A stretch of DNA of 64,000 nucleotides from Escherichia coli (lineage in GTDB: Bacteria; Pseudomonadota; Gammaproteobacteria; Enterobacterales; Enterobacteriaceae): the NCBI RefSeq assembly GCF_002854065.1, contig NZ_CP024147.1. One strand, written 5' to 3'. Positions within the stretch are counted from its first letter, which is position 1. Each line of letters opens with the position of its first letter. Shown piece after piece: positions 2,299-63,286 of this stretch. The notes under the pieces are model-generated. The model was given only the letters and a program-made list of their open reading frames with translations. It searched no databases and was not told the DNA's origin. Made by a program: the position numbers and the translations under genes.

Positions 2299-3468
2299 TT
2301 AGCTGTTAGCAACGCAAACTGTTTCAGGTTGTTTTCTGGCTGACATAAACACCAGCAATAATGCCAGTCCCGCGACAATCGCCCCCATCACCGGCACAAA
2401 GCTGTATCCCAGCCCAGCGGAAATTACCGCACCACCAGCGGCTGCTCCCAGCGCATTTCCAAGATTAAAGGCACCAATATTGACTGATGAAGACAGACCT
2501 GGCGCTTCACTGGCGACACGCATCACGCGCATCTGTAACGGCGGTACGACCGCAAAGGTTGCAGCGCCCCACACCACCATGCTAATAGCTGCGCCGAACT
2601 CATTGCGGGCCAGGAACGGGATTGCCAGCATAATCACCATCAGCAGCAACAAAAAGCCTTTCAACGTGCCGTTAACTGAACGATCTGCCAGTTTGCCGCC
2701 GAGATAGTTACCGATAGAGAATCCGACACCAATCAGCACCAGCATTGCCGTGACGAACACCGGTGTTGCGTGGGTAATACTTTGCAGTACCGGAGAGATA
2801 TAGGTGTAGAGAGTAAACATTGCACCAGCTCCCAGTACCGTCGTCAGCAATGCAGACAGCACCTGCGGACGCATTAATACCGCCAGCTCTTTTTTCACTT
2901 CAGGTCGTGCCCCTGCACCACCTTTAGGTAATGAGAAGAACAGACTTACCATTGAAATCACTCCCAGCCCCGCCGTTGCCAGAAATGACATCCGCCAGCC
3001 GATGGTTTCACCCAACCAGGTCGCCGCCGGCACGCCACCGATATTTGCCAGGGTTAACCCCATAAACATAGTGGCAACTGCGCTGGCCTGTTTATGTTTT
3101 GGCACCACGCTTGCAGCCACGACTGAACCCAAACCAAAAAATGCTCCATGATTCAGGCTGGTCAAAATGCGTGAAAGCATCAGGGTCATATAATCCGGCG
3201 CGATGGCGGAAAGTACGTTGCCGAGCGTGAAAATTGCCATCAGGAAAATCAACGCACTGCGGCGGGCACGATGAGAAAGTAGAAGCGTCATCAGCGGCGC
3301 GCCAACCATTACGCCAACTGCATAGGCACTGATTAACATTCCGGCAGCGGGAATCGAGACATCCACACCGCGCGCAATGACGGGCAACAAGCCCATTGGC
3401 GAGAACTCCGTTGTCCCGATACCAAACGCGCCAATCGCCAGCGCCAGCAACGGATAGTTAATTTTCAT
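2299..3468 (-). CDS. ydhP: MFS-family transporter
   Basis: 389-aa polytopic membrane ORF; gene order sodB-ydhP-purR. Confidence 0.85.
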   Translation of the reverse strand: MKINYPLLALAIGAFGIGTTEFSPMGLLPVIARGVDVSIPAAGMLISAYAVGVMVGAPLMTLLLSHRARRSALIFLMAIFTLGNVLSAIAPDYMTLMLSRILTSLNHGAFFGLGSVVAASVVPKHKQASAVATMFMGLTLANIGGVPAATWLGETIGWRMSFLATAGLGVISMVSLFFSLPKGGAGARPEVKKELAVLMRPQVLSALLTTVLGAGAMFTLYTYISPVLQSITHATPVFVTAMLVLIGVGFSIGNYLGGKLADRSVNGTLKGFLLLLMVIMLAIPFLARNEFGAAISMVVWGAATFAVVPPLQMRVMRVASEAPGLSSSVNIGAFNLGNALGAAAGGAVISAGLGYSFVPVMGAIVAGLALLLVFMSARKQPETVCVANS

Positions 3469-3632
3469 GCCTTATCTCCACCTCTTCGCGTCATTACGCG
3501 ATATTCATTAAAGTGGCGAAAGCATGCAGCAATCACAAAAAAATGAAAATAACAAAAAGAGAAAACACTTTTGCCATTTTGCTAACAAACAGGAAGGAGA
3601 TGCGAGGGAGAACGCGCTCCCTCGAGAGGAAA

Positions 3633-3722
3633 TCAGTGCAGCGCGGCAGTCAAACCCACGGCTACGATCAAACCGAGGACGATAATCGTTGTTACCAGTG
3701 AAAATTTAAGGTCGGTGCTCAT
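3633..3722 (-). CDS. ynhF: 29-aa single-helix small membrane protein
   Basis: Hand translation of the minus strand: ATG (complement 3720-3722) ... MSTDLKFSLVTTIIVLGLIVAVGLTAALH, stop at 3633-3635; AAGGAG Shine-Dalgarno 8 nt upstream. Too short for the ORF track. Confidence 0.7.
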   Translation of the reverse strand: MSTDLKFSLVTTIIVLGLIVAVGLTAALH

Positions 3723-3960
3723 CAAGTTTTCTCCTTTTTTATTACCACACAAAAAGTGATATTACGCATTTTTACACACTGTGATGAAAAAATCTCCCGT
3801 CATTTATAATGATAAGTGTTTTTACCACTTCCCCTTTTCGTCAAGATCGGCCAAAATTCCACGCTTACACTATTTGCGTACTGGCCATTGACCCCTTCCT
3901 GACGCTCCGTGTCGTTTTTCCGGCGTACCGCAACACTTTTGTTGTGCGTAAGGTGTGTAA

Positions 3961-3976
3961 AGGCAAACGTTTACCT
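3961..3976. promoter_or_regulatory. PurR operator O1 (PUR box) in the purR leader
   Basis: AGGCAAACGTTTACCT fits the PUR-box consensus ACGCAAACGTTTTCNT; 45 bp upstream of the purR start. Confidence 0.7.
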
Positions 3977-4020
3977 TGCGATTTTGCAGGAGCTGAAGTT
4001 AGGGTCTGGAGTGAAATGGA

Positions 4021-5046
4021 ATGGCAACAATAAAAGATGTAGCGAAACGAGCAAACGTTTCCACTACAACTGTGTCACACGTGATCAACAAAACACGTTT
4101 CGTCGCTGAAGAAACGCGCAACGCCGTGTGGGCAGCGATTAAAGAATTACACTACTCCCCTAGCGCGGTGGCGCGTAGCCTGAAGGTTAACCACACCAAG
4201 TCTATCGGTTTGCTGGCGACCAGCAGCGAAGCGGCCTATTTTGCCGAGATCATTGAAGCAGTTGAAAAAAATTGCTTCCAGAAAGGTTACACCCTGATTC
4301 TGGGCAATGCGTGGAATAATCTTGAGAAACAGCGGGCTTATCTGTCGATGATGGCGCAAAAACGCGTCGATGGTCTGCTGGTAATGTGTTCTGAGTACCC
4401 AGAGCCGTTGCTGGCGATGCTGGAAGAGTATCGCCATATCCCAATGGTGGTGATGGACTGGGGTGAAGCAAAAGCTGACTTCACCGATGCGGTCATTGAT
4501 AACGCGTTCGAAGGCGGCTACATGGCCGGGCGTTATCTGATAGAACGCGGCCATCGCGAAATCGGCGTTATCCCCGGCCCGCTGGAACGTAACACCGGCG
4601 CAGGCCGCCTTGCCGGTTTTATGAAGGCGATGGAAGAAGCGATGATCAAGGTGCCGGAAAGCTGGATTGTGCAGGGTGATTTTGAACCTGAATCCGGTTA
4701 TCGCGCCATGCAGCAAATCCTGTCGCAGCCGCATCGCCCTACTGCCGTCTTCTGTGGTGGCGATATCATGGCAATGGGCGCACTTTGTGCTGCTGATGAA
4801 ATGGGGCTGCGCGTCCCGCAGGATGTTTCGCTGATCGGTTATGATAACGTGCGCAACGCCCGCTATTTTACGCCGGCGCTGACCACGATCCATCAGCCAA
4901 AAGACTCGCTGGGTGAAACAGCGTTCAACATGCTGTTGGATCGTATCGTCAACAAACGTGAAGAACCGCAGTCCATTGAAGTGCATCCGCGCTTGATTGA
5001 ACGCCGCTCCGTGGCTGACGGCCCGTTCCGCGACTATCGTCGTTAA
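4021..5046 (+). CDS. purR: Purine repressor, LacI family
   Basis: 341-aa [39 protein letters not shown]... with LacI-type HTH. Confidence 0.97.
4049..4064. promoter_or_regulatory. PurR operator O2 inside the purR coding region
   Basis: GAGCAAACGTTTCCAC carries the GCAAACGTTT core, 88 bp downstream of O1, matching the known two-operator autoregulation layout. Confidence 0.6.
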
Positions 5047-12692: not shown

Positions 12693-12769
12693 GCGTCCGT
12701 AGCTCAGTTGGTTAGAGCACCACCTTGACATGGTGGGGGTCGGTGGTTCGAGTCCACTCGGACGCACCA
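12693..12769 (+). tRNA. valW: tRNA-Val (anticodon GAC), second copy
   Basis: 77-nt cloverleaf identical in core to valV but with acceptor stem GCGTCCG/CGGACGC; 4-nt spacer between the copies. Confidence 0.95.
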
Positions 12770-12800
12770 GATTTTCTTAATCTGGTCTTCTCCTTTTTCC
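12766..12800 (+). terminator. Intrinsic terminator after valW
   Basis: Stem ACCAGAT / ATCTGGT followed by CTTCTCCTTTTTCCC. Confidence 0.6.
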
Positions 12801-12876
12801 CTCTGCTTCTTCTCTGTATCCAATACGTTAAAAGATTTACACTGTCTTCGTATGCGTTATCAGAAGGAGAATCGCT

Positions 12877-13182
12877 ATGGCAACTTTGTTACAACTTCAT
12901 TTTGCTTTTAATGGCCCATTTGGCGACGCAATGGCTGAGCAGCTTAAACCACTTGCTGAGTCGATTAATCAGGAACCTGGTTTTCTGTGGAAGGTATGGA
13001 CAGAAAGTGAAAAGAACCACGAAGCCGGCGGGATCTACCTTTTCACTGATGAAAAAAGCGCCCTTGCCTATCTGGAAAAACACACTGCCCGACTGAAAAA
13101 TCTCGGCGTTGAGGAAGTTGTCGCCAAAGTTTTCGATGTCAATGAGCCACTGAGTCAAATCAATCAGGCAAAACTCGCCTGA
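12877..13182 (+). CDS. ydhR: Small conserved protein of unknown function
   Basis: 101-aa ORF with RBS GAAGGAG 6 nt before the ATG; position after the tRNA-Val pair. Confidence 0.8.
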
Positions 13183-20512: not shown

Positions 20513-20567
20513 GGTGATGCTGCCAACTTACTGATTTAGTGTATGATGGTGTTTTTGAGGTGCTCCA

Positions 20568-20843
20568 GTGGCTTCTGTTTCTATCAGCTGTCCCTCCTGT
20601 TCAGCTACTGACGGGGTGGTGCGTAACGGCAAAAGCACTGCCGGACATCAGCGCTATCTCTGCTCTCACTGCCGTAAAACATGGCAACTGCAGTTCACTT
20701 ACACCGCTTCTCAACCCGGTACGCACCAGAAAATCATTGATATGGCCATGAATGGCGTTGGATGCCGGGCAACCGCCCGCATTATGGGCGTTGGCCTCAA
20801 CACGATTTTCCGCCATTTAAAAAACTCAGGCCGCAGTCGGTAA
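20568..20843 (+). CDS. insA: IS1 InsA (transposition repressor / N-terminal part of InsAB' transposase)
   Basis: 91-aa [46 protein letters not shown]... with zinc-finger-like Cys pairs. Confidence 0.95.
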
Positions 20844-21265
20844 CCTCGCGCATACAGCCGGGCAGTGACGTCATCGTCTGCGCGGAAATGGACGAACAGT
20901 GGGGATACGTCGGGGCTAAATCGCGCCAGCGCTGGCTGTTTTACGCGTATGACAGGCTCCGGAAGACGGTTGTTGCGCACGTATTCGGTGAACGCACTAT
21001 GGCGACGCTGGGGCGTCTTATGAGCCTGCTGTCACCCTTTGACGTGGTGATATGGATGACGGATGGCTGGCCGCTGTATGAATCCCGCCTGAAGGGAAAG
21101 CTGCACGTAATCAGCAAGCGATATACGCAGCGAATTGAGCGGCATAACCTGAATCTGAGGCAGCACCTGGCACGGCTGGGACGGAAGTCGCTGTCGTTCT
21201 CAAAATCGGTGGAGCTGCATGACAAAGTCATCGGGCATTATCTGAACATAAAACACTATCAATAA
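20762..21265 (+). CDS. insB: IS1 InsB (catalytic part of InsAB' transposase, made by -1 frameshift)
   Basis: 167-aa [19 protein letters not shown]...HYLNIKHYQ in the -1 frame relative to insA. Confidence 0.95.
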
Positions 21266-21280
21266 GTTGGAGTCATTACC

Positions 21281-31621: not shown

Positions 31622-31690
31622 AATAAGAAAACCCTTAAGTCTGTGCGACACAGGCTTAAGGGTTTCTACCCCATCCGGCGCTTATCTCCG
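31622..31690 (-). ncRNA. rydB: Probable small RNA RydB
   Basis: Minus-strand 17-bp hairpin (31629-31665, one A-C mismatch) followed by UUUUCUUAUUU, at the sufA-ydiH position where RydB is annotated in K-12; the 5' end is estimated. Confidence 0.4.
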
Positions 31691-31887
31691 GCACTCTCAG
31701 TGGCTTAGCTCTTGAAGGGGCGATAAGAATAATCTCATAAAGCTAACCCGCCGTTTTAACACAAACTGCGATTAGTATTATTTTTGAACAATATCAGGCG
31801 GGTAGATAAGCAGTATTAAGAAGGTCATCGAACCTGGACGGAGGTTAATCCAGGTCGATTTGGCGAACTTGCGGCATTAAGTCAGGA

Positions 31888-37325: not shown

Positions 37326-37430
37326 ACGGTTATAAATCAACATATTGATTTATAAGCATGGAAATCCCCTGAGTGAAACAACGAATTGCTGTGTGTAGTC
37401 TTTGCCCATCTCCCACGATGGGCTTTTTTT
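37326..37430 (+). ncRNA. rprA: RprA small regulatory RNA
   Basis: Sequence ACGGTTATAAATCAACATATTGATTTATAAGCATGGAAATCCCCTGAGTGAAACAACGAATTGCTGTGTGTAGTCTTTGCCCATCTCCCACGATGGGCTTTTTTT matches RprA as I recall it, including the terminator hairpin and U-tail. Confidence 0.88.
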
Positions 37431-37568
37431 TAACATTTTTCCGCTTCGCTACCTCGCCCCTCACTCTTTCCAATAATGTTGCACAAGATACTGTGACTCT
37501 CTTCAAGCCGTCAGCAGGCTGATAATGTTATTTATATTTTATTGTTTATTTCATGCAGCCATTACACG

Positions 37569-42543: not shown

Positions 42544-44139
42544 ATGAAACCTGTAAAACCACCTCGTATTAATGGACGAGTGCCGGTCCTGTCGGCACAG
42601 GAAGCGGTGAATTATATTCCCGACGAAGCAACACTTTGTGTGTTAGGCGCTGGCGGCGGTATTCTGGAAGCCACCACGTTAATTACTGCTCTTGCTGATA
42701 AATATAAACAGACTCAAACGCCACGTAATTTATCGATTATTAGTCCAACAGGGCTTGGCGATCGCGCCGACCGTGGTATTAGTCCGCTGGCGCAAGAAGG
42801 TCTGGTTAAATGGGCATTATGCGGTCACTGGGGACAATCGCCGCGTATTTCTGATCTCGCAGAACAAAATAAAATTATTGCTTATAACTATCCACAAGGT
42901 GTACTTACACAAACCTTACGCGCCGCCGCAGCCCACCAGCCTGGTATTATTAGTGATATTGGCATCGGGACATTTGTCGATCCACGCCAGCAAGGCGGCA
43001 AACTGAATGAAGTCACTAAAGAAGACCTGATTAAACTGGTCGAGTTTGATAACAAAGAATATCTCTATTACAAAGCGATTGCGCCAGATATCGCCTTCAT
43101 TCGCGCTACCACCTGCGACAGCGAAGGCTACGCCACTTTTGAAGATGAGGTGATGTATCTCGACGCATTGGTTATTGCCCAGGCGGTGCACAATAACGGC
43201 GGTATTGTGATGATGCAGGTGCAGAAAATGGTTAAGAAAGCCACGCTGCATCCTAAATCTGTCCGTATTCCGGGTTATCTGGTGGATATTGTGGTGGTCG
43301 ATCCGGATCAAACCCAACTGTATGGCGGTGCACCGGTTAACCGCTTTATTTCTGGTGACTTCACCCTTGATGACAGTACCAAACTTAGCCTGCCCCTAAA
43401 CCAACGTAAATTAGTTGCGCGGCGCGCATTATTCGAAATGCGTAAAGGCGCGGTGGGGAATGTCGGCGTCGGTATTGCTGACGGCATTGGCCTGGTCGCT
43501 CGGGAAGAAGGTTGTGCTGATGACTTTATTCTGACGGTAGAAACAGGTCCGATTGGCGGAATTACTTCACAGGGTATCGCCTTTGGCGCGAACGTGAATA
43601 CCCGCGCCATTCTGGATATGACGTCCCAGTTTGATTTTTATCACGGTGGTGGTCTGGATGTTTGTTATTTGAGTTTTGCTGAAGTCGACCAGCACGGTAA
43701 CGTCGGTGTGCATAAATTCAATGGTAAAATCATGGGCACTGGTGGATTTATTGATATCAGTGCCACTTCGAAGAAAATCGTTTTCTGCGGCACATTAACT
43801 GCGGGCAGTTTAAACACAGAAATTACCGACGGCAAATTAAATATCGTCCAGGAAGGACGGGTGAAGAAATTTATTCGGGAACTACCGGAAATTACTTTCA
43901 GCGGAAAAATCGCTCTCGAGCGAGGGCTGGATGTTCGTTATATCACTGAGCGCGCAGTATTCACGCTGAAAGAAGACGGCCTGCATTTAATCGAAATCGC
44001 CCCTGGCGTCGATTTACAAAAAGATATTCTCGACAAAATGGATTTCACCCCAGTAATTTCGCCAGAACTCAAACTGATGGACGAAAGATTATTTATCGAT
44101 GCGGCGATGGGTTTTGTCCTGCCTGAAGCGGCTCATTAA
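42544..44139 (+). CDS. ydiF: Fused alpha/beta family-I CoA-transferase
   Basis: 531-aa ORF with CoA-transferase glutamate-site region; immediately upstream of ydiO. Confidence 0.85.
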   Translation: MKPVKPPRINGRVPVLSAQEAVNYIPDEATLCVLGAGGGILEATTLITALADKYKQTQTPRNLSIISPTGLGDRADRGISPLAQEGLVKWALCGHWGQSPRISDLAEQNKIIAYNYPQGVLTQTLRAAAAHQPGIISDIGIGTFVDPRQQGGKLNEVTKEDLIKLVEFDNKEYLYYKAIAPDIAFIRATTCDSEGYATFEDEVMYLDALVIAQAVHNNGGIVMMQVQKMVKKATLHPKSVRIPGYLVDIVVVDPDQTQLYGGAPVNRFISGDFTLDDSTKLSLPLNQRKLVARRALFEMRKGAVGNVGVGIADGIGLVAREEGCADDFILTVETGPIGGITSQGIAFGANVNTRAILDMTSQFDFYHGGGLDVCYLSFAEVDQHGNVGVHKFNGKIMGTGGFIDISATSKKIVFCGTLTAGSLNTEITDGKLNIVQEGRVKKFIRELPEITFSGKIALERGLDVRYITERAVFTLKEDGLHLIEIAPGVDLQKDILDKMDFTPVISPELKLMDERLFIDAAMGFVLPEAAH

Positions 44140-44152
44140 CAGGAGTATCACG

Positions 44153-45304
44153 ATGGATTTTTCTTTAACTGAAGAACAAGAACTGCTGCTGGCCAGTATT
44201 CGCGAACTGATTACGACTAACTTTCCGGAAGAGTATTTCCGCACCTGCGATCAAAACGGGACATACCCGCGTGAATTTATGCGGGCACTGGCGGATAACG
44301 GTATTTCCATGCTTGGCGTGCCGGAAGAATTTGGTGGTATCCCTGCGGATTACGTCACCCAGATGCTGGCGCTGATGGAAGTGTCAAAATGCGGTGCTCC
44401 GGCATTTTTGATCACCAACGGTCAATGTATTCACAGTATGCGCCGTTTCGGTTCTGCAGAGCAGCTACGTAAAACGGCAGAAAGCACCCTGGAAACCGGC
44501 GACCCCGCCTATGCCCTGGCGTTGACGGAACCAGGTGCTGGCTCAGATAACAACAGCGCCACTACCACTTACACGCGTAAAAACGGCAAGGTTTACATCA
44601 ACGGACAGAAAACTTTTATTACCGGTGCGAAAGAGTACCCGTATATGCTGGTGCTGGCGCGCGATCCTGAACCGAAAGATCCCAAAAAAGCCTTCACCCT
44701 GTGGTGGGTCGACTCCAGTAAGCCCGGCATTAAGATTAACCCGCTGCATAAAATCGGCTGGCATATGCTCAGCACCTGCGAAGTCTATCTCGACAACGTG
44801 GAAGTTGAAGAGAGCGACATGGTGGGCGAAGAAGGAATGGGTTTCCTCAATGTGATGTACAACTTTGAGATGGAGCGCCTGATCAACGCCGCGCGCAGCA
44901 CCGGCTTTGCCGAGTGTGCCTTTGAAGATGCCGCCCGCTATGCCAACCAACGTATCGCTTTTGGTAAACCCATTGGTCATAACCAGATGATCCAGGAAAA
45001 ACTGGCGCTGATGGCGATTAAGATCGACAACATGCGCAACATGGTGCTGAAAGTAGCATGGCAAGCCGATCAGCATCAGTCACTGCGCACCAGCGCGGCG
45101 CTGGCAAAACTGTATTGCGCACGTACCGCAATGGAAGTCATTGATGATGCGATTCAAATCATGGGCGGTCTGGGCTATACCGATGAAGCGCGCGTCTCCC
45201 GCTTCTGGCGTGATGTCCGTTGTGAACGTATTGGCGGCGGTACAGACGAAATTATGATTTACGTAGCAGGTCGGCAAATCCTGAAAGACTATCAGAACAA
45301 ATAA
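44153..45304 (+). CDS. ydiO: Acyl-CoA dehydrogenase family protein
   Basis: 383 aa from MDFSLTEEQELLLASIRELI... (AGGAG RBS at 44141-44145); ACAD fold motifs. Confidence 0.85.
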   Translation: MDFSLTEEQELLLASIRELITTNFPEEYFRTCDQNGTYPREFMRALADNGISMLGVPEEFGGIPADYVTQMLALMEVSKCGAPAFLITNGQCIHSMRRFGSAEQLRKTAESTLETGDPAYALALTEPGAGSDNNSATTTYTRKNGKVYINGQKTFITGAKEYPYMLVLARDPEPKDPKKAFTLWWVDSSKPGIKINPLHKIGWHMLSTCEVYLDNVEVEESDMVGEEGMGFLNVMYNFEMERLINAARSTGFAECAFEDAARYANQRIAFGKPIGHNQMIQEKLALMAIKIDNMRNMVLKVAWQADQHQSLRTSAALAKLYCARTAMEVIDDAIQIMGGLGYTDEARVSRFWRDVRCERIGGGTDEIMIYVAGRQILKDYQNK

Positions 45305-45346
45305 TCTGCAGGCGGCGCAGCTTCTTAACAAACTGCGCCGCCAGAT

Positions 45347-46258
45347 TTACCCGGCAAGACTTACCGGTTGAGGAAATTCAGATAAGATTTCTTGTTCCGC
45401 AAAACAGTTTTTAAATTGCCTGCGGTAATCGCTGGGCGAACAACCGACATGGCGCAAAAACAGTTTGGCAAAGTGATCGACATTTTCATAACCCACACGC
45501 CAGGAGATCTCTGCCTGTGATAATTCAGTATTAGTGAGTAACCATTTCGCTTCCGTCATACGCCGTTGAATAACATAGTTAATAGGGGAAATACGATACT
45601 CTTTGGTAAATTCATGGCAAATATAACTGACGCTGGCACGAAATTTTTTCGATAACTGTTCTAAAGTGATTTTTTCGCGATAATTATTATTTAGATAGAA
45701 AAGAATATCTTTTATCAGAACATCTTTTTTAATATACCCCTGCTCCGAACGATAAGCATTTTTAAAGTTTTCGTAGTAAAGAATTGCTAATGTATAGGCA
45801 AATGCATCCCATAACGAAGATGTTTGGCTATTTTTACTTTGCGGCAAAATCACACTTAGCTCATTAAATAAGGTTTTAATGACTTCTTTTCCCTGCCCCG
45901 CGGCAATTACCGGACAAGAATGCGGTTGCAGTAGATGATTTTCCTCAGCCCCCTGAAACTGAAAGCCGTACAGCGCACAGGTACACGTCGTTGCCGGATC
46001 GTTAACGTCAGAGGCCACCGCATGCAGCCTGCCGCGTTCTATCACCACTATATCATCTGCATGCGCGACATATAACGAAGAATCGATGGTAAACCTTGCC
46101 ACCCCTTTCTTGACGTAAATCAGCTCGGTTTCATTGTCATGAACGTGATGTCCAGACTCCCATTTTGGATCATCGCTAAATGCAAAACGTGAAAGCCGTG
46201 GCGTTTTACCAGCGACAAACAGCGTTTCACTGGCATTATCAAAACAGCGTTGATACAT
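45347..46258 (-). CDS. ydiP: AraC-family transcriptional regulator
   Basis: 303-aa ORF with C-terminal AraC HTH; divergent from ydiQ. Confidence 0.8.
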   Translation of the reverse strand: MYQRCFDNASETLFVAGKTPRLSRFAFSDDPKWESGHHVHDNETELIYVKKGVARFTIDSSLYVAHADDIVVIERGRLHAVASDVNDPATTCTCALYGFQFQGAEENHLLQPHSCPVIAAGQGKEVIKTLFNELSVILPQSKNSQTSSLWDAFAYTLAILYYENFKNAYRSEQGYIKKDVLIKDILFYLNNNYREKITLEQLSKKFRASVSYICHEFTKEYRISPINYVIQRRMTEAKWLLTNTELSQAEISWRVGYENVDHFAKLFLRHVGCSPSDYRRQFKNCFAEQEILSEFPQPVSLAG

Positions 46259-46573
46259 GACAACCTCCCTATTCCATGAGCAAGCAAAAACAATATATGC
46301 CGGATAAAATACGGCGTGTATTGCGGTTATACAACCGCGTTTAGCGAGAGCTAAACAAGATTATTTACACTGAATGCAAGATTGTACGGTCATGGAATAA
46401 CTATATTGCCGCAAATTGCACTTTTGTTTTAGCGATCGCATTTTTTTTGCAAGATTGTTGGCAAGGAAAACAGCTTGCTCCGTCGAAAACCCCGCACCGC
46501 TATCGCACACTATTTTCAGGCCATTTTTACCTTCCATCGGAGATGGTTCCGTATGCGACTCACAGGAGAAATC

Positions 46574-47338
46574 ATGAAAATAATAACCTGCTTTAAGCTG
46601 GTGCCTGAAGAACAGGACATTGTTGTCACTCCAGAATACACCCTGAATTTCGACAATGCCGACGCCAAAATCAGCCAGTTCGATCTCAATGCCATTGAAG
46701 CTGCAAGCCAGCTTGCAACAGATGACGATGAGATAGCCGCGCTGACCGTTGGCGGCTCATTGTTGCAGAACTCGAAAGTGCGCAAAGACGTGCTATCCCG
46801 CGGGCCGCACAGCCTGTATATGGTGCAGGATGCACAACTTGAGCATGCACTGCCTCTCGATACCGCAAAAGCGCTGGCGGCAGCAGTTGAAAAGATCGGC
46901 TTCGATTTACTGATCTTTGGTGAAGGTTCCGGCGACCTTTATGCCCAGCAGGTTGGCTTGCTGGTCGGAGAAATTCTGCAACTTCCGGTGATTAATGCAG
47001 TGAGTGCTATTCAGCGTCAGGGCAATACACTGGTGATTGAACGCACGCTTGAAGATGACGTTGAAGTTATTGAACTCTCTGTTCCAGCCGTGCTCTGCGT
47101 CACCTCCGATATTAACGTGCCACGCATTCCTTCGATGAAAGCCATTCTCGGCGCGGGTAAAAAACCGGTAAATCAGTGGCAGGCAAGTGATATTGGCTGG
47201 AGCCAGAGCGCACCACTTGCTGAACTGACCGGCATTCGCGTACCGCCGCAAACAGAACGTAAGCACATCATTCTCGATAACGATTCGCCGGAGGCCATTG
47301 CCGAGCTGGCGGAACATCTGAAGAAAGCCCTGAACTGA
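46574..47338 (+). CDS. ydiQ: Electron-transfer flavoprotein beta subunit (FixA-like)
   Basis: 254 aa from MKIITCFKLVPEEQDIVV... (AGGAG RBS at 46565-46569); the ORF-track start at 46475 is an extension. Confidence 0.85.
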   Translation: MKIITCFKLVPEEQDIVVTPEYTLNFDNADAKISQFDLNAIEAASQLATDDDEIAALTVGGSLLQNSKVRKDVLSRGPHSLYMVQDAQLEHALPLDTAKALAAAVEKIGFDLLIFGEGSGDLYAQQVGLLVGEILQLPVINAVSAIQRQGNTLVIERTLEDDVEVIELSVPAVLCVTSDINVPRIPSMKAILGAGKKPVNQWQASDIGWSQSAPLAELTGIRVPPQTERKHIILDNDSPEAIAELAEHLKKALN

Positions 47339-47357
47339 AGCCTACGGAGAAGAAACG

Positions 47358-48296
47358 ATGAGTCAATTAAACAGCGTCTGGGTCTTTAGCGATAATCCTG
47401 AACGTTATGCTGAACTGTTTGGCGGCGCTCAGCAATGGGGCCAACAGGTGTATGCCATTGTACAAAATACCGACCAGGTGCAGACAGTTATGCCTTATGG
47501 TCCAAAATGTATTTATGTTCTTGAGCAAAACGACGCGCTGCAACGCACTGAAAATTACGCCGAAAGCATTGCTGCTCTGCTGAAAGATAAACACCCCGCT
47601 ATGTTGCTACTGGCCGCGACGAAACGTGGTAAAGCTCCGGCAGCACGGTTAAGTGTGCAACTGAATGCGGCGCTGGTGAACGATGCCACGGCGGTGGATA
47701 TTGTCGATGGTCACATTTGCGCCGAACACCGGATGTATGGCGGGTTAGCGTTCGCTCAGGAAAAGATCAACAGCTCGCTAGCGATCATTACCCTTGCACC
47801 CGGTGTTCAGGAACCGTGCACCAGTGATACCTCTCATCAGTGCCCGACAGAAACGGTACCTTATGTTGCTCCGCGTCATGAAATTCTCTGTCGCGAGCGC
47901 CGTGCGAAAGCGGCAAGCAGCGTGGACCTGAGCAAAGCAAAACGTGTGGTTGGCGTCGGTCGTGGTCTGGCAGCGCAGGATGACCTGAAAATGGTCCACG
48001 AACTGGCGGCGGTGCTGAATGCTGAAGTCGGCTGTTCACGTCCAATTGCCGAAGGCGAGAACTGGATGGAGCGTGAACGTTATATCGGTGTCTCCGGCGT
48101 GTTGCTGAAATCCGATCTCTACCTGACGCTGGGGATCTCCGGGCAGATCCAACATATGGTTGGCGGCAACGGCGCAAAAGTGATTGTCGCCATCAATAAA
48201 GATAAAAATGCGCCAATCTTCAACTATGCCGACTACGGTCTGGTGGGCGATATCTACAAAGTCGTCCCTACCCTGATTAGCCAGTTGAGCCGCTAA
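47358..48296 (+). CDS. ydiR: Electron-transfer flavoprotein alpha subunit (FixB-like)
   Basis: 312-aa ORF with ETF-alpha FAD-binding C-terminal domain. Confidence 0.85.
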   Translation: MSQLNSVWVFSDNPERYAELFGGAQQWGQQVYAIVQNTDQVQTVMPYGPKCIYVLEQNDALQRTENYAESIAALLKDKHPAMLLLAATKRGKAPAARLSVQLNAALVNDATAVDIVDGHICAEHRMYGGLAFAQEKINSSLAIITLAPGVQEPCTSDTSHQCPTETVPYVAPRHEILCRERRAKAASSVDLSKAKRVVGVGRGLAAQDDLKMVHELAAVLNAEVGCSRPIAEGENWMERERYIGVSGVLLKSDLYLTLGISGQIQHMVGGNGAKVIVAINKDKNAPIFNYADYGLVGDIYKVVPTLISQLSR

Positions 48297-48351
48297 TTCC
48301 CCTTTCAACCACATCTCCCGCTGTAAACGCAGCGGGAAGGGAGCATAACGC

Positions 48352-49641
48352 ATGTCGGATGACAAATTTGATGCCATTGTGGTCGGTGCGGGCGTTGCTG
48401 GTAGCGTTGCCGCACTGGTCATGGCACGAGCCGGGCTGGATGTCCTGGTGATAGAACGCGGCGACAGTGCCGGATGTAAAAACATGACCGGCGGGCGTCT
48501 TTATGCCCACACACTTGAAGAGATTATTCCAGGCTTTGCAGCATCAGCGCCGGTAGAACGCAAGGTCACACGCGAGAAAATCTCCTTCTTAACCGAAGAG
48601 AGCGCCGTTACCCTCGATTTTCACCGCGAGCAACCAGATGTTCCGCAACACGCATCTTATACCGTATTGCGTAATCGTCTGGACCCGTGGTTGATGGAAC
48701 ATGCCGAGCAGGCGGGCGCACAGTTTATCCCGGGAGTTCGCGTCGATGCGCTGGTTCGTGAAGGAAACAAGGTCACTGGCGTCCAGGCTGGGGATGATAT
48801 TCTCGAAGCGAATGTGGTGATTCTGGCTGATGGCGTTAACTCGATGCTTGGCCGTTCGCTGGGAATGGTTCCCGCTTCCGATCCGCATCATTACGCTGTT
48901 GGTGTTAAAGAGGTTATTGGCCTCACACCAGAACAGATCAACGATCGCTTTAATATTACGGGCGAGGAAGGTGCCGCCTGGCTGTTTGCCGGTTCCCCTT
49001 CTGACGGCCTGATGGGTGGCGGATTCCTCTATACCAATAAGGATTCCATATCGTTGGGGCTGGTTTGTGGATTGGGTGATATCGCCCATGCGCAAAAAAG
49101 CGTGCCGCAAATGCTGGAAGATTTTAAACAACACCCCGCCATTCGCCCGCTGATTAGCGGCGGCAAGTTGCTTGAATATTCCGCGCATATGGTGCCGGAA
49201 GGCGGTCTGGCAATGGTGCCGCAACTGGTTAACGAGGGCGTGATGATCGTTGGTGACGCCGCAGGCTTCTGCCTGAATTTGGGTTTTACGGTCCGCGGCA
49301 TGGATTTAGCCATTGCATCGGCTCAGGCTGCCGCCACAACGGTGATCGCCGCCAAAGAACGCGCGGATTTCTCCGCCAGCAGTCTTGCGCAATACAAACG
49401 TGAGCTGGAACAAAGTTGTGTTATGCGCGATATGCAGCATTTTCGCAAGATCCCGACGCTGATGGAAAATCCGCGCCTGTTTAGTCAGTATCCGCGCATG
49501 GTCGCCGACATCATGAACGATATGTTCACCATTGACGGCAAACCAAACCAGCCGGTACGCAAAATGATCATGGGACACGCGAAGAAAATTGGGCTGATCA
49601 ACTTGCTGAAAGATGGCATTAAGGGAGCAACCGCGCTATGA
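48352..49641 (+). CDS. ydiS: ETF:quinone oxidoreductase-like FAD flavoprotein (FixC-like)
   Basis: 429-aa ORF with N-terminal GxGxxG (VVGAGVAGSVAA). Confidence 0.85.
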   Translation: MSDDKFDAIVVGAGVAGSVAALVMARAGLDVLVIERGDSAGCKNMTGGRLYAHTLEEIIPGFAASAPVERKVTREKISFLTEESAVTLDFHREQPDVPQHASYTVLRNRLDPWLMEHAEQAGAQFIPGVRVDALVREGNKVTGVQAGDDILEANVVILADGVNSMLGRSLGMVPASDPHHYAVGVKEVIGLTPEQINDRFNITGEEGAAWLFAGSPSDGLMGGGFLYTNKDSISLGLVCGLGDIAHAQKSVPQMLEDFKQHPAIRPLISGGKLLEYSAHMVPEGGLAMVPQLVNEGVMIVGDAAGFCLNLGFTVRGMDLAIASAQAAATTVIAAKERADFSASSLAQYKRELEQSCVMRDMQHFRKIPTLMENPRLFSQYPRMVADIMNDMFTIDGKPNQPVRKMIMGHAKKIGLINLLKDGIKGATAL

Positions 49642-49931
49642 GCCAGAACGCTACGGTTAACGTCGACATCAAATTAGGCGTCAATAAATTCCATGTTGAT
49701 GAGGGCCACCCGCATATCATTTTGGCGGCAAATCCCGATATCAATGAATTCCGTAAATTAATGAAAGCCTGCCCTGCCGGACTTTATAAGCAGGATGATG
49801 CCGGCAACATTCATTTTGATTCCGCCGGTTGTCTGGAGTGCGGCACCTGTCGGGTGCTGTGCGGTAACACTATTCTCGAACAGTGGCAATATCCCGCAGG
49901 CACCTTCGGTATTGATTTTCGCTACGGCTAA
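49638..49931 (+). CDS. ydiT: Ferredoxin-like protein (FixX-like)
   Basis: 97-aa ORF with Cys cluster CPAGLY...CLECGTCRVLC; 4-nt overlap with ydiS. Confidence 0.85.
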   Translation: MSQNATVNVDIKLGVNKFHVDEGHPHIILAANPDINEFRKLMKACPAGLYKQDDAGNIHFDSAGCLECGTCRVLCGNTILEQWQYPAGTFGIDFRYG

Positions 49932-51253
49932 TCATGCATCCCACAGGCCCGCATCTCGGGCCTGATGTTCTGTTTCGAGAGTCCAAAATGAAAGTGACAT
50001 TAACGTTTAACGAACAACGTCGTGCGGCGTATCGTCAGCAAGGGCTATGGGGCGATGCTTCGCTGGCCGATTACTGGCAGCAGACCGCTCGTGCGATGCC
50101 AGACAAAATTGCCGTGGTCGATAATCATGGAGCATCGTACACCTATAGCGCGCTCGATCACGCCGCGAGCTGTCTGGCAAACTGGATGTTAGCGAAGGGT
50201 ATTGAATCAGGCGATCGCATCGCATTTCAACTGCCAGGCTGGTGTGAATTTACCGTTATCTATCTTGCCTGCCTGAAAATCGGTGCGGTTTCCGTACCGC
50301 TGTTGCCTTCCTGGCGGGAAGCAGAACTGGTATGGGTGCTTAATAAGTGTCAGGCAAAAATGTTCTTTGCACCGACGTTGTTTAAACAAACGCGTCCGGT
50401 AGATTTAATCCTGCCGCTGCAAAATCAGCTTCCACAACTACAACAAATTGTCGGCGTGGACAAACTGGCTCCCGCCACCTCTTCCCTCTCATTAAGTCAG
50501 ATTATCGCCGACAATACCCCACTGACCACGGCGATAACGACCCACGGCGATGAATTAGCCGCGGTGCTGTTTACCTCCGGAACCGAGGGCCTGCCAAAGG
50601 GCGTGATGCTTACGCATAACAATATTCTCGCCAGTGAGCGGGCTTATTGCGCGCGGCTGAATCTGACCTGGCAGGATGTCTTTATGATGCCTGCGCCACT
50701 CGGCCACGCAACGGGCTTTCTGCATGGCGTAACAGCACCATTTTTGATTGGTGCTCGCAGCGTGTTGTTAGATATTTTCACTCCTGATGCGTGTCTCGCG
50801 CTGCTTGAGCAGCAGCGTTGCACCTGTATGCTCGGCGCAACGCCGTTTGTCTATGATCTTTTGAATTTACTAGAGAAACAACCCGCAGACCTTTCAGCGC
50901 TGCGCTTCTTTCTTTGCGGCGGTACCACAATCCCCAAAAAAGTGGCGCGTGAATGCCAGCAGCGCGGCATTAAATTATTAAGTGTTTATGGTTCCACAGA
51001 AAGTTCGCCGCATGCGGTGGTGAATCTCGATGATCCTTTGTCGCGCTTTATGCACACCGATGGTTACGCTGCCGCAGGTGTAGAGATTAAAGTGGTCGAT
51101 GACGCACGCAAGACCTTACCGCCAGGTTGCGAAGGTGAAGAAGCCTCGCGTGGCCCCAATGTGTTTATGGGGTATTTTGATGAACCTGAATTAACCGCCC
51201 GAGCCCTGGATGAAGAAGGCTGGTATTACAGCGGCGATCTCTGCCGTATGGAT

Positions 51254-51262
51254 GAAGCTGGC
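51254..51262. repeat. IS1 target-site duplication, left copy (GAAGCTGGC)
   Basis: Identical 9-mer at 51254-51262 and 52031-52039 flanking the IS1. Confidence 0.9.
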
Positions 51263-51317
51263 GGTGATGCTGCCAACTTACTGATTTAGTGTATGATGGT
51301 GTTTTTGAGGTGCTCCA

Positions 51318-51593
51318 GTGGCTTCTGTTTCTATCAGCTGTCCCTCCTGTTCAGCTACTGACGGGGTGGTGCGTAACGGCAAAAGCACTGCCGGACATCA
51401 GCGCTATCTCTGCTCTCACTGCCGTAAAACATGGCAACTGCAGTTCACTTACACCGCTTCTCAACCCGGTACGCACCAGAAAATCATTGATATGGCCATG
51501 AATGGCGTTGGATGCCGGGCAACCGCCCGCATTATGGGCGTTGGCCTCAACACGATTTTCCGCCATTTAAAAAACTCAGGCCGCAGTCGGTAA
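51318..51593 (+). CDS. insA: IS1 InsA
   Basis: 91-aa ORF identical to the copy A InsA. Confidence 0.95.
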
Positions 51594-52015
51594 CCTCGCG
51601 CATACAGCCGGGCAGTGACGTCATCGTCTGCGCGGAAATGGACGAACAGTGGGGATACGTCGGGGCTAAATCGCGCCAGCGCTGGCTGTTTTACGCGTAT
51701 GACAGGCTCCGGAAGACGGTTGTTGCGCACGTATTCGGTGAACGCACTATGGCGACGCTGGGGCGTCTTATGAGCCTGCTGTCACCCTTTGACGTGGTGA
51801 TATGGATGACGGATGGCTGGCCGCTGTATGAATCCCGCCTGAAGGGAAAGCTGCACGTAATCAGCAAGCGATATACGCAGCGAATTGAGCGGCATAACCT
51901 GAATCTGAGGCAGCACCTGGCACGGCTGGGACGGAAGTCGCTGTCGTTCTCAAAATCGGTGGAGCTGCATGACAAAGTCATCGGGCATTATCTGAACATA
52001 AAACACTATCAATAA
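51512..52015 (+). CDS. insB: IS1 InsB
   Basis: 167-aa ORF identical to the copy A InsB. Confidence 0.95.
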
Positions 52016-52030
52016 GTTGGAGTCATTACC

Positions 52031-62886: not shown

Positions 62887-62945
62887 GGTATCCGTTCTGC
62901 TGAAGTGTCATGGCGTTGATTTTACGGTGACTCTTCGACAGTGAA

Positions 62946-62975
62946 AAGAAAAAAGGCCGCAGAGCGGCCTTTTTA
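62946..62975. terminator. Bidirectional intrinsic terminator downstream of ihfA
   Basis: Stem GGCCGC / GCGGCC flanked by an A-run upstream and T-run downstream. Confidence 0.6.
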
Positions 62976-62986
62976 GTTAGATCAGA

Positions 62987-63286
62987 TTACTCGTCTTTGG
63001 GCGAAGCGTTTTCGACCCGGCTTTTTAACTTCTGCCCGGGTCTGAAGGTCACCACGCGCCGTGCTGTAATGGGAATATCCTCGCCCGTTTTCGGGTTACG
63101 TCCCGGGCGTTGATTCTTATCACGCAGATCGAAGTTACCAAAACCAGAGAGTTTCACCTGTTCGCCGTTTTCCAGAGCGCGACGGATCTCTTCGAAAAAC
63201 AGTTCAACCAGTTCTTTGGCATCCCGCTTGCTAAGCCCAAGCTTATCAAACAGATATTCTGACATTTCAGCTTTTGTAAGCGCCAT
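62987..63286 (-). CDS. ihfA: Integration host factor alpha subunit
   Basis: 99-aa [55 protein letters not shown]... Confidence 0.97.

Follow-up and report, generated by a model that had tools for sequence, protein, structure and literature searches.

A 29-codon reading frame between ydhP and purR of Escherichia coli matches cydH, the gene for a single-helix subunit of cytochrome bd-I

Background

Cytochrome bd-I is the high-affinity quinol oxidase that Escherichia coli uses at low oxygen. The purified E. coli enzyme contains an unexpected fourth subunit, a single helix that mass spectrometry (MS) identified as YnhF, and the gene for this protein lies between ydhP and purR, outside cydABX (Theßeling et al. 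2019). That report, citing earlier work, states that YnhF is made at low oxygen and that it retains its formyl-methionine. The same authors proposed that YnhF blocks an oxygen channel to heme b595, and that oxygen reaches heme d via a narrower channel from CydB. In reviews the protein is called CydH; its helix is placed in a cleft of CydA between TM1 and TM9, opposite CydX. One review notes that CydH co-occurs with long-Q-loop cydAB, and the bd-II and mycobacterial enzymes are described in reviews as being without a CydH-like subunit. Structures published in 2025 again show a CydA-CydB-CydX-CydH heterotetramer, and top-down proteomics has recovered the intact 29-amino-acid protein, its sequence fully (100%) covered and its N-terminus formylated.

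The subject of this report is a 29-codon reading frame in a 64,000-nucleotide stretch of E. coli DNA (contig NZ_CP024147.1), referred to throughout as the window and numbered from its first letter. An initial annotation of the window, made from the letters alone, had described the frame as a hydrophobic small ORF named ynhF. Here the identity, conservation, and expression signals of this frame are described, and the locus is compared with the bd-I subunits and with a small RNA family that matches it.

Position and identity of the gene

Read directly from the window, the frame lies on the minus strand, opens with an ATG at 3722-3720, and closes with a TGA at 3635-3633, giving 29 codons in all. 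Translation of 3633-3722 on the minus strand yields the 29-amino-acid peptide MSTDLKFSLVTTIIVLGLIVAVGLTAALH. The coding sequence and its ribosome binding site are as follows:

3633..3722, minus strand: cydH (ynhF) coding sequence, assigned from the sequence, RefSeq coordinates, PDB identity, an NCBIfam match, and conservation.
3731..3736, minus strand: Shine-Dalgarno sequence AAGGAG, read directly, separated from the cydH ATG by an 8-nt spacer (3730-3723).

Start codon, stop codon, and peptide are thus those given in the initial annotation, and the strong AAGGAG ribosome binding site that it described is found at 3736-3731, 8 nt 5' of the ATG. The intergenic position between ydhP and purR is likewise confirmed by the flanking genes, ydhP at 2299-3468 (minus) and purR at 4021-5046 (plus); sodB, punR, and punC are also encoded within the window. 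The mean Kyte-Doolittle hydropathy over residues 8-28 is 2.43, a value that fits one transmembrane helix and supports the single-helix prediction made at the outset.

The identity of the gene is established by several kinds of record. Of 5426 complete E. coli genomes, 5425 contain a 701-nt stretch that includes the ORF, and among the matches listed the annotation at that stretch reads “cydH: cytochrome bd-I accessory subunit CydH”. In a collinear E. coli strain, the RefSeq cydH CDS has the same coordinates as the frame in the window. The peptide is identical at 29 of 29 positions to chain H of PDB entry 6RKO (CydH/YnhF in the cryo-EM structure of cytochrome bd-I); seven further PDB entries contain this sequence too (eight in all). 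The CydH equivalog model of NCBIfam, NF033411, matches with 50.2 bits (cutoff 30), residues 1-29 corresponding to profile positions 1-29. The exact peptide carries the name YnhF or CydH in public protein collections; no Pfam family was found for it. The name ynhF given initially is therefore borne out by the database records and by the PDB and NCBIfam identity, and the current name is CydH. With a probability of roughly 95%, the ORF is cydH (formerly ynhF, also cydY), a translated gene for a single-helix subunit of cytochrome bd-I.

This 29-codon gene is already known: it has been annotated, named, detected by MS, and resolved by cryo-EM. The ORF finding is correct but ordinary, since cydH is an annotated E. 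coli gene with a structurally resolved product. The evidence supports the view that the earlier reading was incomplete rather than wrong, the gene having gained a partner and the new name CydH (also CydY) since 2019; now that the partner is known and the structure has been solved under the new name, the earlier interpretation is outdated. The name ynhF is accordingly out of date, and the function of a cytochrome bd-I subunit should go with the gene. Because cytochrome bd is a target for antibacterial drugs, it is of some practical use to have its subunits correctly annotated. The locus can also serve as a positive control: a genuine 29-codon gene was recoverable from raw sequence, without tools, through its ribosome binding site and its hydrophobic frame.

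In E. coli PCN061 (NZ_CP006636.1, 1697591-1699069), an IS1A element splits the ydhP-cydH-purR stretch into two pieces.

The start codon and the ORF track

The frame had been described as missed by the ORF track, and this holds. In a mechanical ORF list it appears as a 39-amino-acid ORF with a TTG start (3633..3752), which the list shows only at a length threshold as low as 20 amino acids; cydH would therefore escape an ORF track run at the usual cutoff. The 39-amino-acid extension to the TTG at 3752 was considered and rejected. In the commonest upstream sequence among orthologs (12 of 80 species), a TAA interrupts the frame six codons 5' of the ATG, and the N-terminus defined by top-down MS, that of the 29-residue formyl-methionine form, also rules the extension out.

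A different in-frame TTG, at 3723-3725 (minus), stands immediately 5' of the cydH ATG. The resulting TTGATG is present in 76 of 80 species, and this TTG is better conserved than the remaining spacer.

The initial annotation had added that other small proteins may sit in the larger intergenic gaps. Among annotated CDSs no such case came up: for a nearly identical strain, RefSeq has no other CDS shorter than 50 amino acids in the span of the window.

Conservation and selection

Orthologous loci were collected from 80 Enterobacteriaceae species (80 loci) via the adjacent purR gene, with PurR at least 92% identical. Because the loci were fetched through purR synteny, conservation of the ORF was not presupposed by the sample. 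Conservation of the reading frame in related bacteria had been named initially as a check on the ORF, and the frame is kept throughout: a gap-free 29-codon ORF divergent from purR is present in 80 of 80 species. All 80 orthologs begin with ATG; the stop codon is TGA in 63 and TAA in 17, and there are no internal stops. The distance from the ORF to the purR ATG is 286-303 nt, and the GGAG core of the ribosome binding site is nearly universal at the same spacing before the ATG. No ribosome-profiling data on cydH, the other check that had been suggested alongside an epitope-tag fusion, were found in the literature surveyed; the intact-mass MS detection and the cryo-EM models of the protein are stronger evidence than such data.

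The orthologs comprise 78 distinct nucleotide sequences and 53 distinct peptides. Variation falls mainly on the third codon position (entropy of 0.47, 0.28, and 1.25 at positions one to three across the 80 species), and the pooled dN/dS is about 0.12. The cydH ORF is under purifying selection, far beyond chance. The invariant residues are M1, L5, T11, T12, L16, I19, V20, and A26. An arrangement of the conserved residues on one helical face was considered and dropped, the clustering not being significant (P = 0.19). Beyond the family sampled here, the literature credits CydH with a wider proteobacterial distribution.

Expression signals around cydH

Two elements close to the coding sequence may mark the ends of a cydH transcript:

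3603..3624, minus strand: stem-loop CGAGGGAG-CGCGTT-CTCCCTCG, present in both the MFE and centroid folds and starting 9 nt past the cydH stop codon.
3768..3776, minus strand: TGnAAAAAT block, invariant or nearly so in a 40-species alignment and conserved in the 80-species profile as well.

The stem-loop is probably the 3' end of the cydH transcript or a terminator. Its cells are 90.6% paired across 40 species, and in three of its eight pairs both sides have changed. In E. coli the stem-loop is not followed by a clean T-run, and folding of the 71-nt stretch gives a z-score of just -1.16; a terminator scan of 3400-4100 returned three terminator-like matches, none of them this stem-loop. The TGnAAAAAT block is a candidate extended -10 element of cydH, from which the leader would be about 40 nt long.

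A consensus promoter scan of 3400-4100 found no sigma-70 site. Patterns for FNR, ArcA, and CRP upstream of cydH occur at or below chance in a pattern scan, and the best FNR-like match overlaps the cydH start codon. As there is no promoter match and no FNR, ArcA, or CRP site above chance, the route of low-oxygen induction is not readable from the sequence. In published experiments, a study of RNases refers to a mapped ynhF transcription start site (TSS) and to trimming of the ynhF 5' leader by RNase G, and a ChIP study in Salmonella reported a MarA/RamA peak in the purR<>ynhF region.

Alternative readings of the locus

Two further features bear on how the region is to be read, one of them a match to an RNA family and the other an operator:

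3630..4020, minus strand: match to Rfam RF02081 (STnc550, typed “Gene; sRNA”), 396.5 bits, full model positions 1-388.
3961..3976, no strand assigned: palindromic PurR-type operator AGGCAAACGTTTACCT, found by pattern scan, with a core invariant in the alignment; it lies in the purR leader and not in the cydH part.

The RF02081 match, far above the family's gathering threshold of 48 bits, spans the cydH CDS and the entire spacer, stopping one base short of the purR ATG. Taken at face value, this match to an sRNA-typed covariance model, together with the origin of the candidate in Salmonella Hfq co-immunoprecipitation sequencing, would make the locus a non-coding, Hfq-associated sRNA in which the ORF is incidental. 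That reading is highly improbable. The original data are weak: in the supplement of Sittka et al. 2008, STnc550 is a class IV candidate from the purR/sodB intergenic region, with 6 reads in the control and 10 after Hfq co-immunoprecipitation (1.7-fold) and a Northern result of “nd”; in the literature searched, STnc550 appears only in that supplement and in no paper text. With one mismatch, the probe target falls within the Salmonella cydH ORF on the coding strand and in frame, covering the codons for LGVIV, residues 16-20 of CydH. The consensus structure fares no better. On a 40-species alignment it has 14 pairs in which both sides change, where shuffles average 14.2, and 305 of 500 shuffles reach at least 14 compensatory pairs; covariation support for the RF02081 structure in this alignment is thus not above that of shuffles, several helices are less than 60% paired, and the best-paired helix (helix 5) is the PurR operator palindrome at 3961-3976, a DNA site. 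Two sibling candidates, STnc250 (ypfM) and STnc570 (yneM), had already been recognised as small-ORF mRNAs by Sittka et al. 2008. Against an incidental ORF stand also the evolution of cydH as a protein and the detection of CydH by MS and cryo-EM. STnc550 appears to combine cydH mRNA with the control DNA of purR and not to be a structured non-coding RNA. RF02081 is then apparently mis-typed as an sRNA, and Rfam-based pipelines will label the cydH locus as a non-coding RNA gene. The open frame might, in turn, owe its conservation to selection on the opposite strand, or be a chance frame within conserved regulatory DNA, an explanation that deserves next to no credence. An antisense frame over 87 nt of cydH is indeed open in 77 of the 78 distinct sequences, and non-coding DNA around cydH is conserved about as strongly as the ORF. 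However, this antisense frame shares its wobble positions with the sense frame, and its codons begin with the complement of the sense second position, almost always T, C, or G, so that stops are hard to form and the open frame is treated as a composition artefact. The antisense frame contains no start-initiated ORF of at least 20 amino acids in the window; a conserved ATG, stop, and GGAG at fixed spacing belong to the sense frame only, whose product has been physically observed.

The cydH-purR spacer is unusually conserved, with a majority fraction of 0.77-0.94 in the 80-species profile. Its best-conserved block, 3844-3903, reaches 0.89-0.94, above the cydH ORF itself, and is presumably purR promoter DNA. 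In a ChIP-chip study, AGGCAAACGTTTACCT is listed among the inferred binding sites of GalR, under a region bound by GalR and labelled ynhF/purR. One might suppose that the cydH transcript starts far upstream and crosses the purR promoter and leader in antisense orientation, with mutual transcriptional interference, in which case respiratory state would be coupled to purine regulation. The strong conservation of the roughly 300-nt spacer, the STnc550 candidate spanning it, and the reported RNase G processing of the ynhF leader hint at such a start. The idea is decidedly unlikely, however: purR's own signals explain the conservation equally well, and the candidate extended -10 at 3768-3776 implies a short leader. 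Unlikely, too, is the broader proposal that CydH has, besides its place in bd-I, a second and independent role in a stress response, or that its mRNA leader is regulatory. In its favour are an older database name, “stress response protein YnhF”, the orphan position of cydH outside the cyd operon, the conservation of the entire spacer, and the published TSS, trimmed leader, and MarA/RamA peak described above. Against it, the purR promoter, operator, and ribosome binding site can account for the spacer, the “stress response” name apparently comes from expression profiling only, and the literature surveyed reports no partner of CydH other than CydA.

CydH in cytochrome bd-I

In published work on the E. 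coli enzyme, the 29-residue product is one transmembrane helix, keeps its N-formyl-methionine, and assembles with CydA, CydB, and CydX into cytochrome bd-I. In the cryo-EM structures, the CydH helix covers an entry on the membrane side of the path to heme b595 and shields this heme from the membrane. In the Geobacillus enzyme the entry on the heme b595 side is the oxygen route; in E. coli bd-I, oxygen would reach heme d via the narrower channel starting in CydB. The channel-blocking role of CydH is a structural interpretation, and the literature surveyed yielded no study in which a cydH deletion was tested genetically or kinetically.

At the level of the gene, cydH is an orphan outside cydABX, divergent from purR at a distance of about 300 nt, with a transcript of its own that probably ends at the conserved stem-loop just past the stop codon. 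The cydAB genes are absent from the window.

Other features of the window

Two copies of IS1 are present. The copy at 20513-21280 interrupts ydhY with a target duplication of 9 bp; strain CUWW06 lacks this copy. The copy at 51263-52030 adjoins a 7.2-kb stretch (44089-51262) that is lost in CUWW06 beside that strain's own IS1.

Several other Rfam matches were recorded. HPnc0260, a Helicobacter antisense RNA, matches at 12731-12893 (minus) with 109.9 bits and overlaps the second tRNA-Val gene; the match is probably driven by tRNA sequence and not by a real homolog. STnc540 matches at 62887-63045 (minus) in the btuC-ihfA spacer; in Salmonella it is the himA/btuC candidate, with a Northern band of about 85 nt (Sittka et al. 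2008). RprA (37326-37433, plus) and RydB (31661-31721, minus) are present, as expected.

Comparison with known systems

The closest described system is CydH/CydY (YnhF) of E. coli bd-I itself. The likeness is complete in sequence, in the length of 29 amino acids, in the single helix, and in the position between ydhP and purR; no difference from the ORF in the window was found, and the two are the same gene. The RNA family over the locus compares less simply: RF02081 is typed as non-coding, yet the translated cydH ORF makes up its 3' quarter, and STnc550 resembles STnc250 (ypfM) and STnc570 (yneM), which are known small-ORF mRNAs.

Among other proteins, CydX, AppX, and CydS are like CydH in being very small single-pass membrane proteins that sit on CydA (or AppC) and were overlooked by early annotation. 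CydX and CydH give no BLASTP alignment at E <= 100 (with chain X of 6rko as the CydX query). CydX is encoded in the cydABX operon, whereas cydH is an orphan gene. CydX lies across CydA from CydH, close to heme b558, and assembly and stability depend on it; CydH, unlike CydX, is credited with shielding heme b595.
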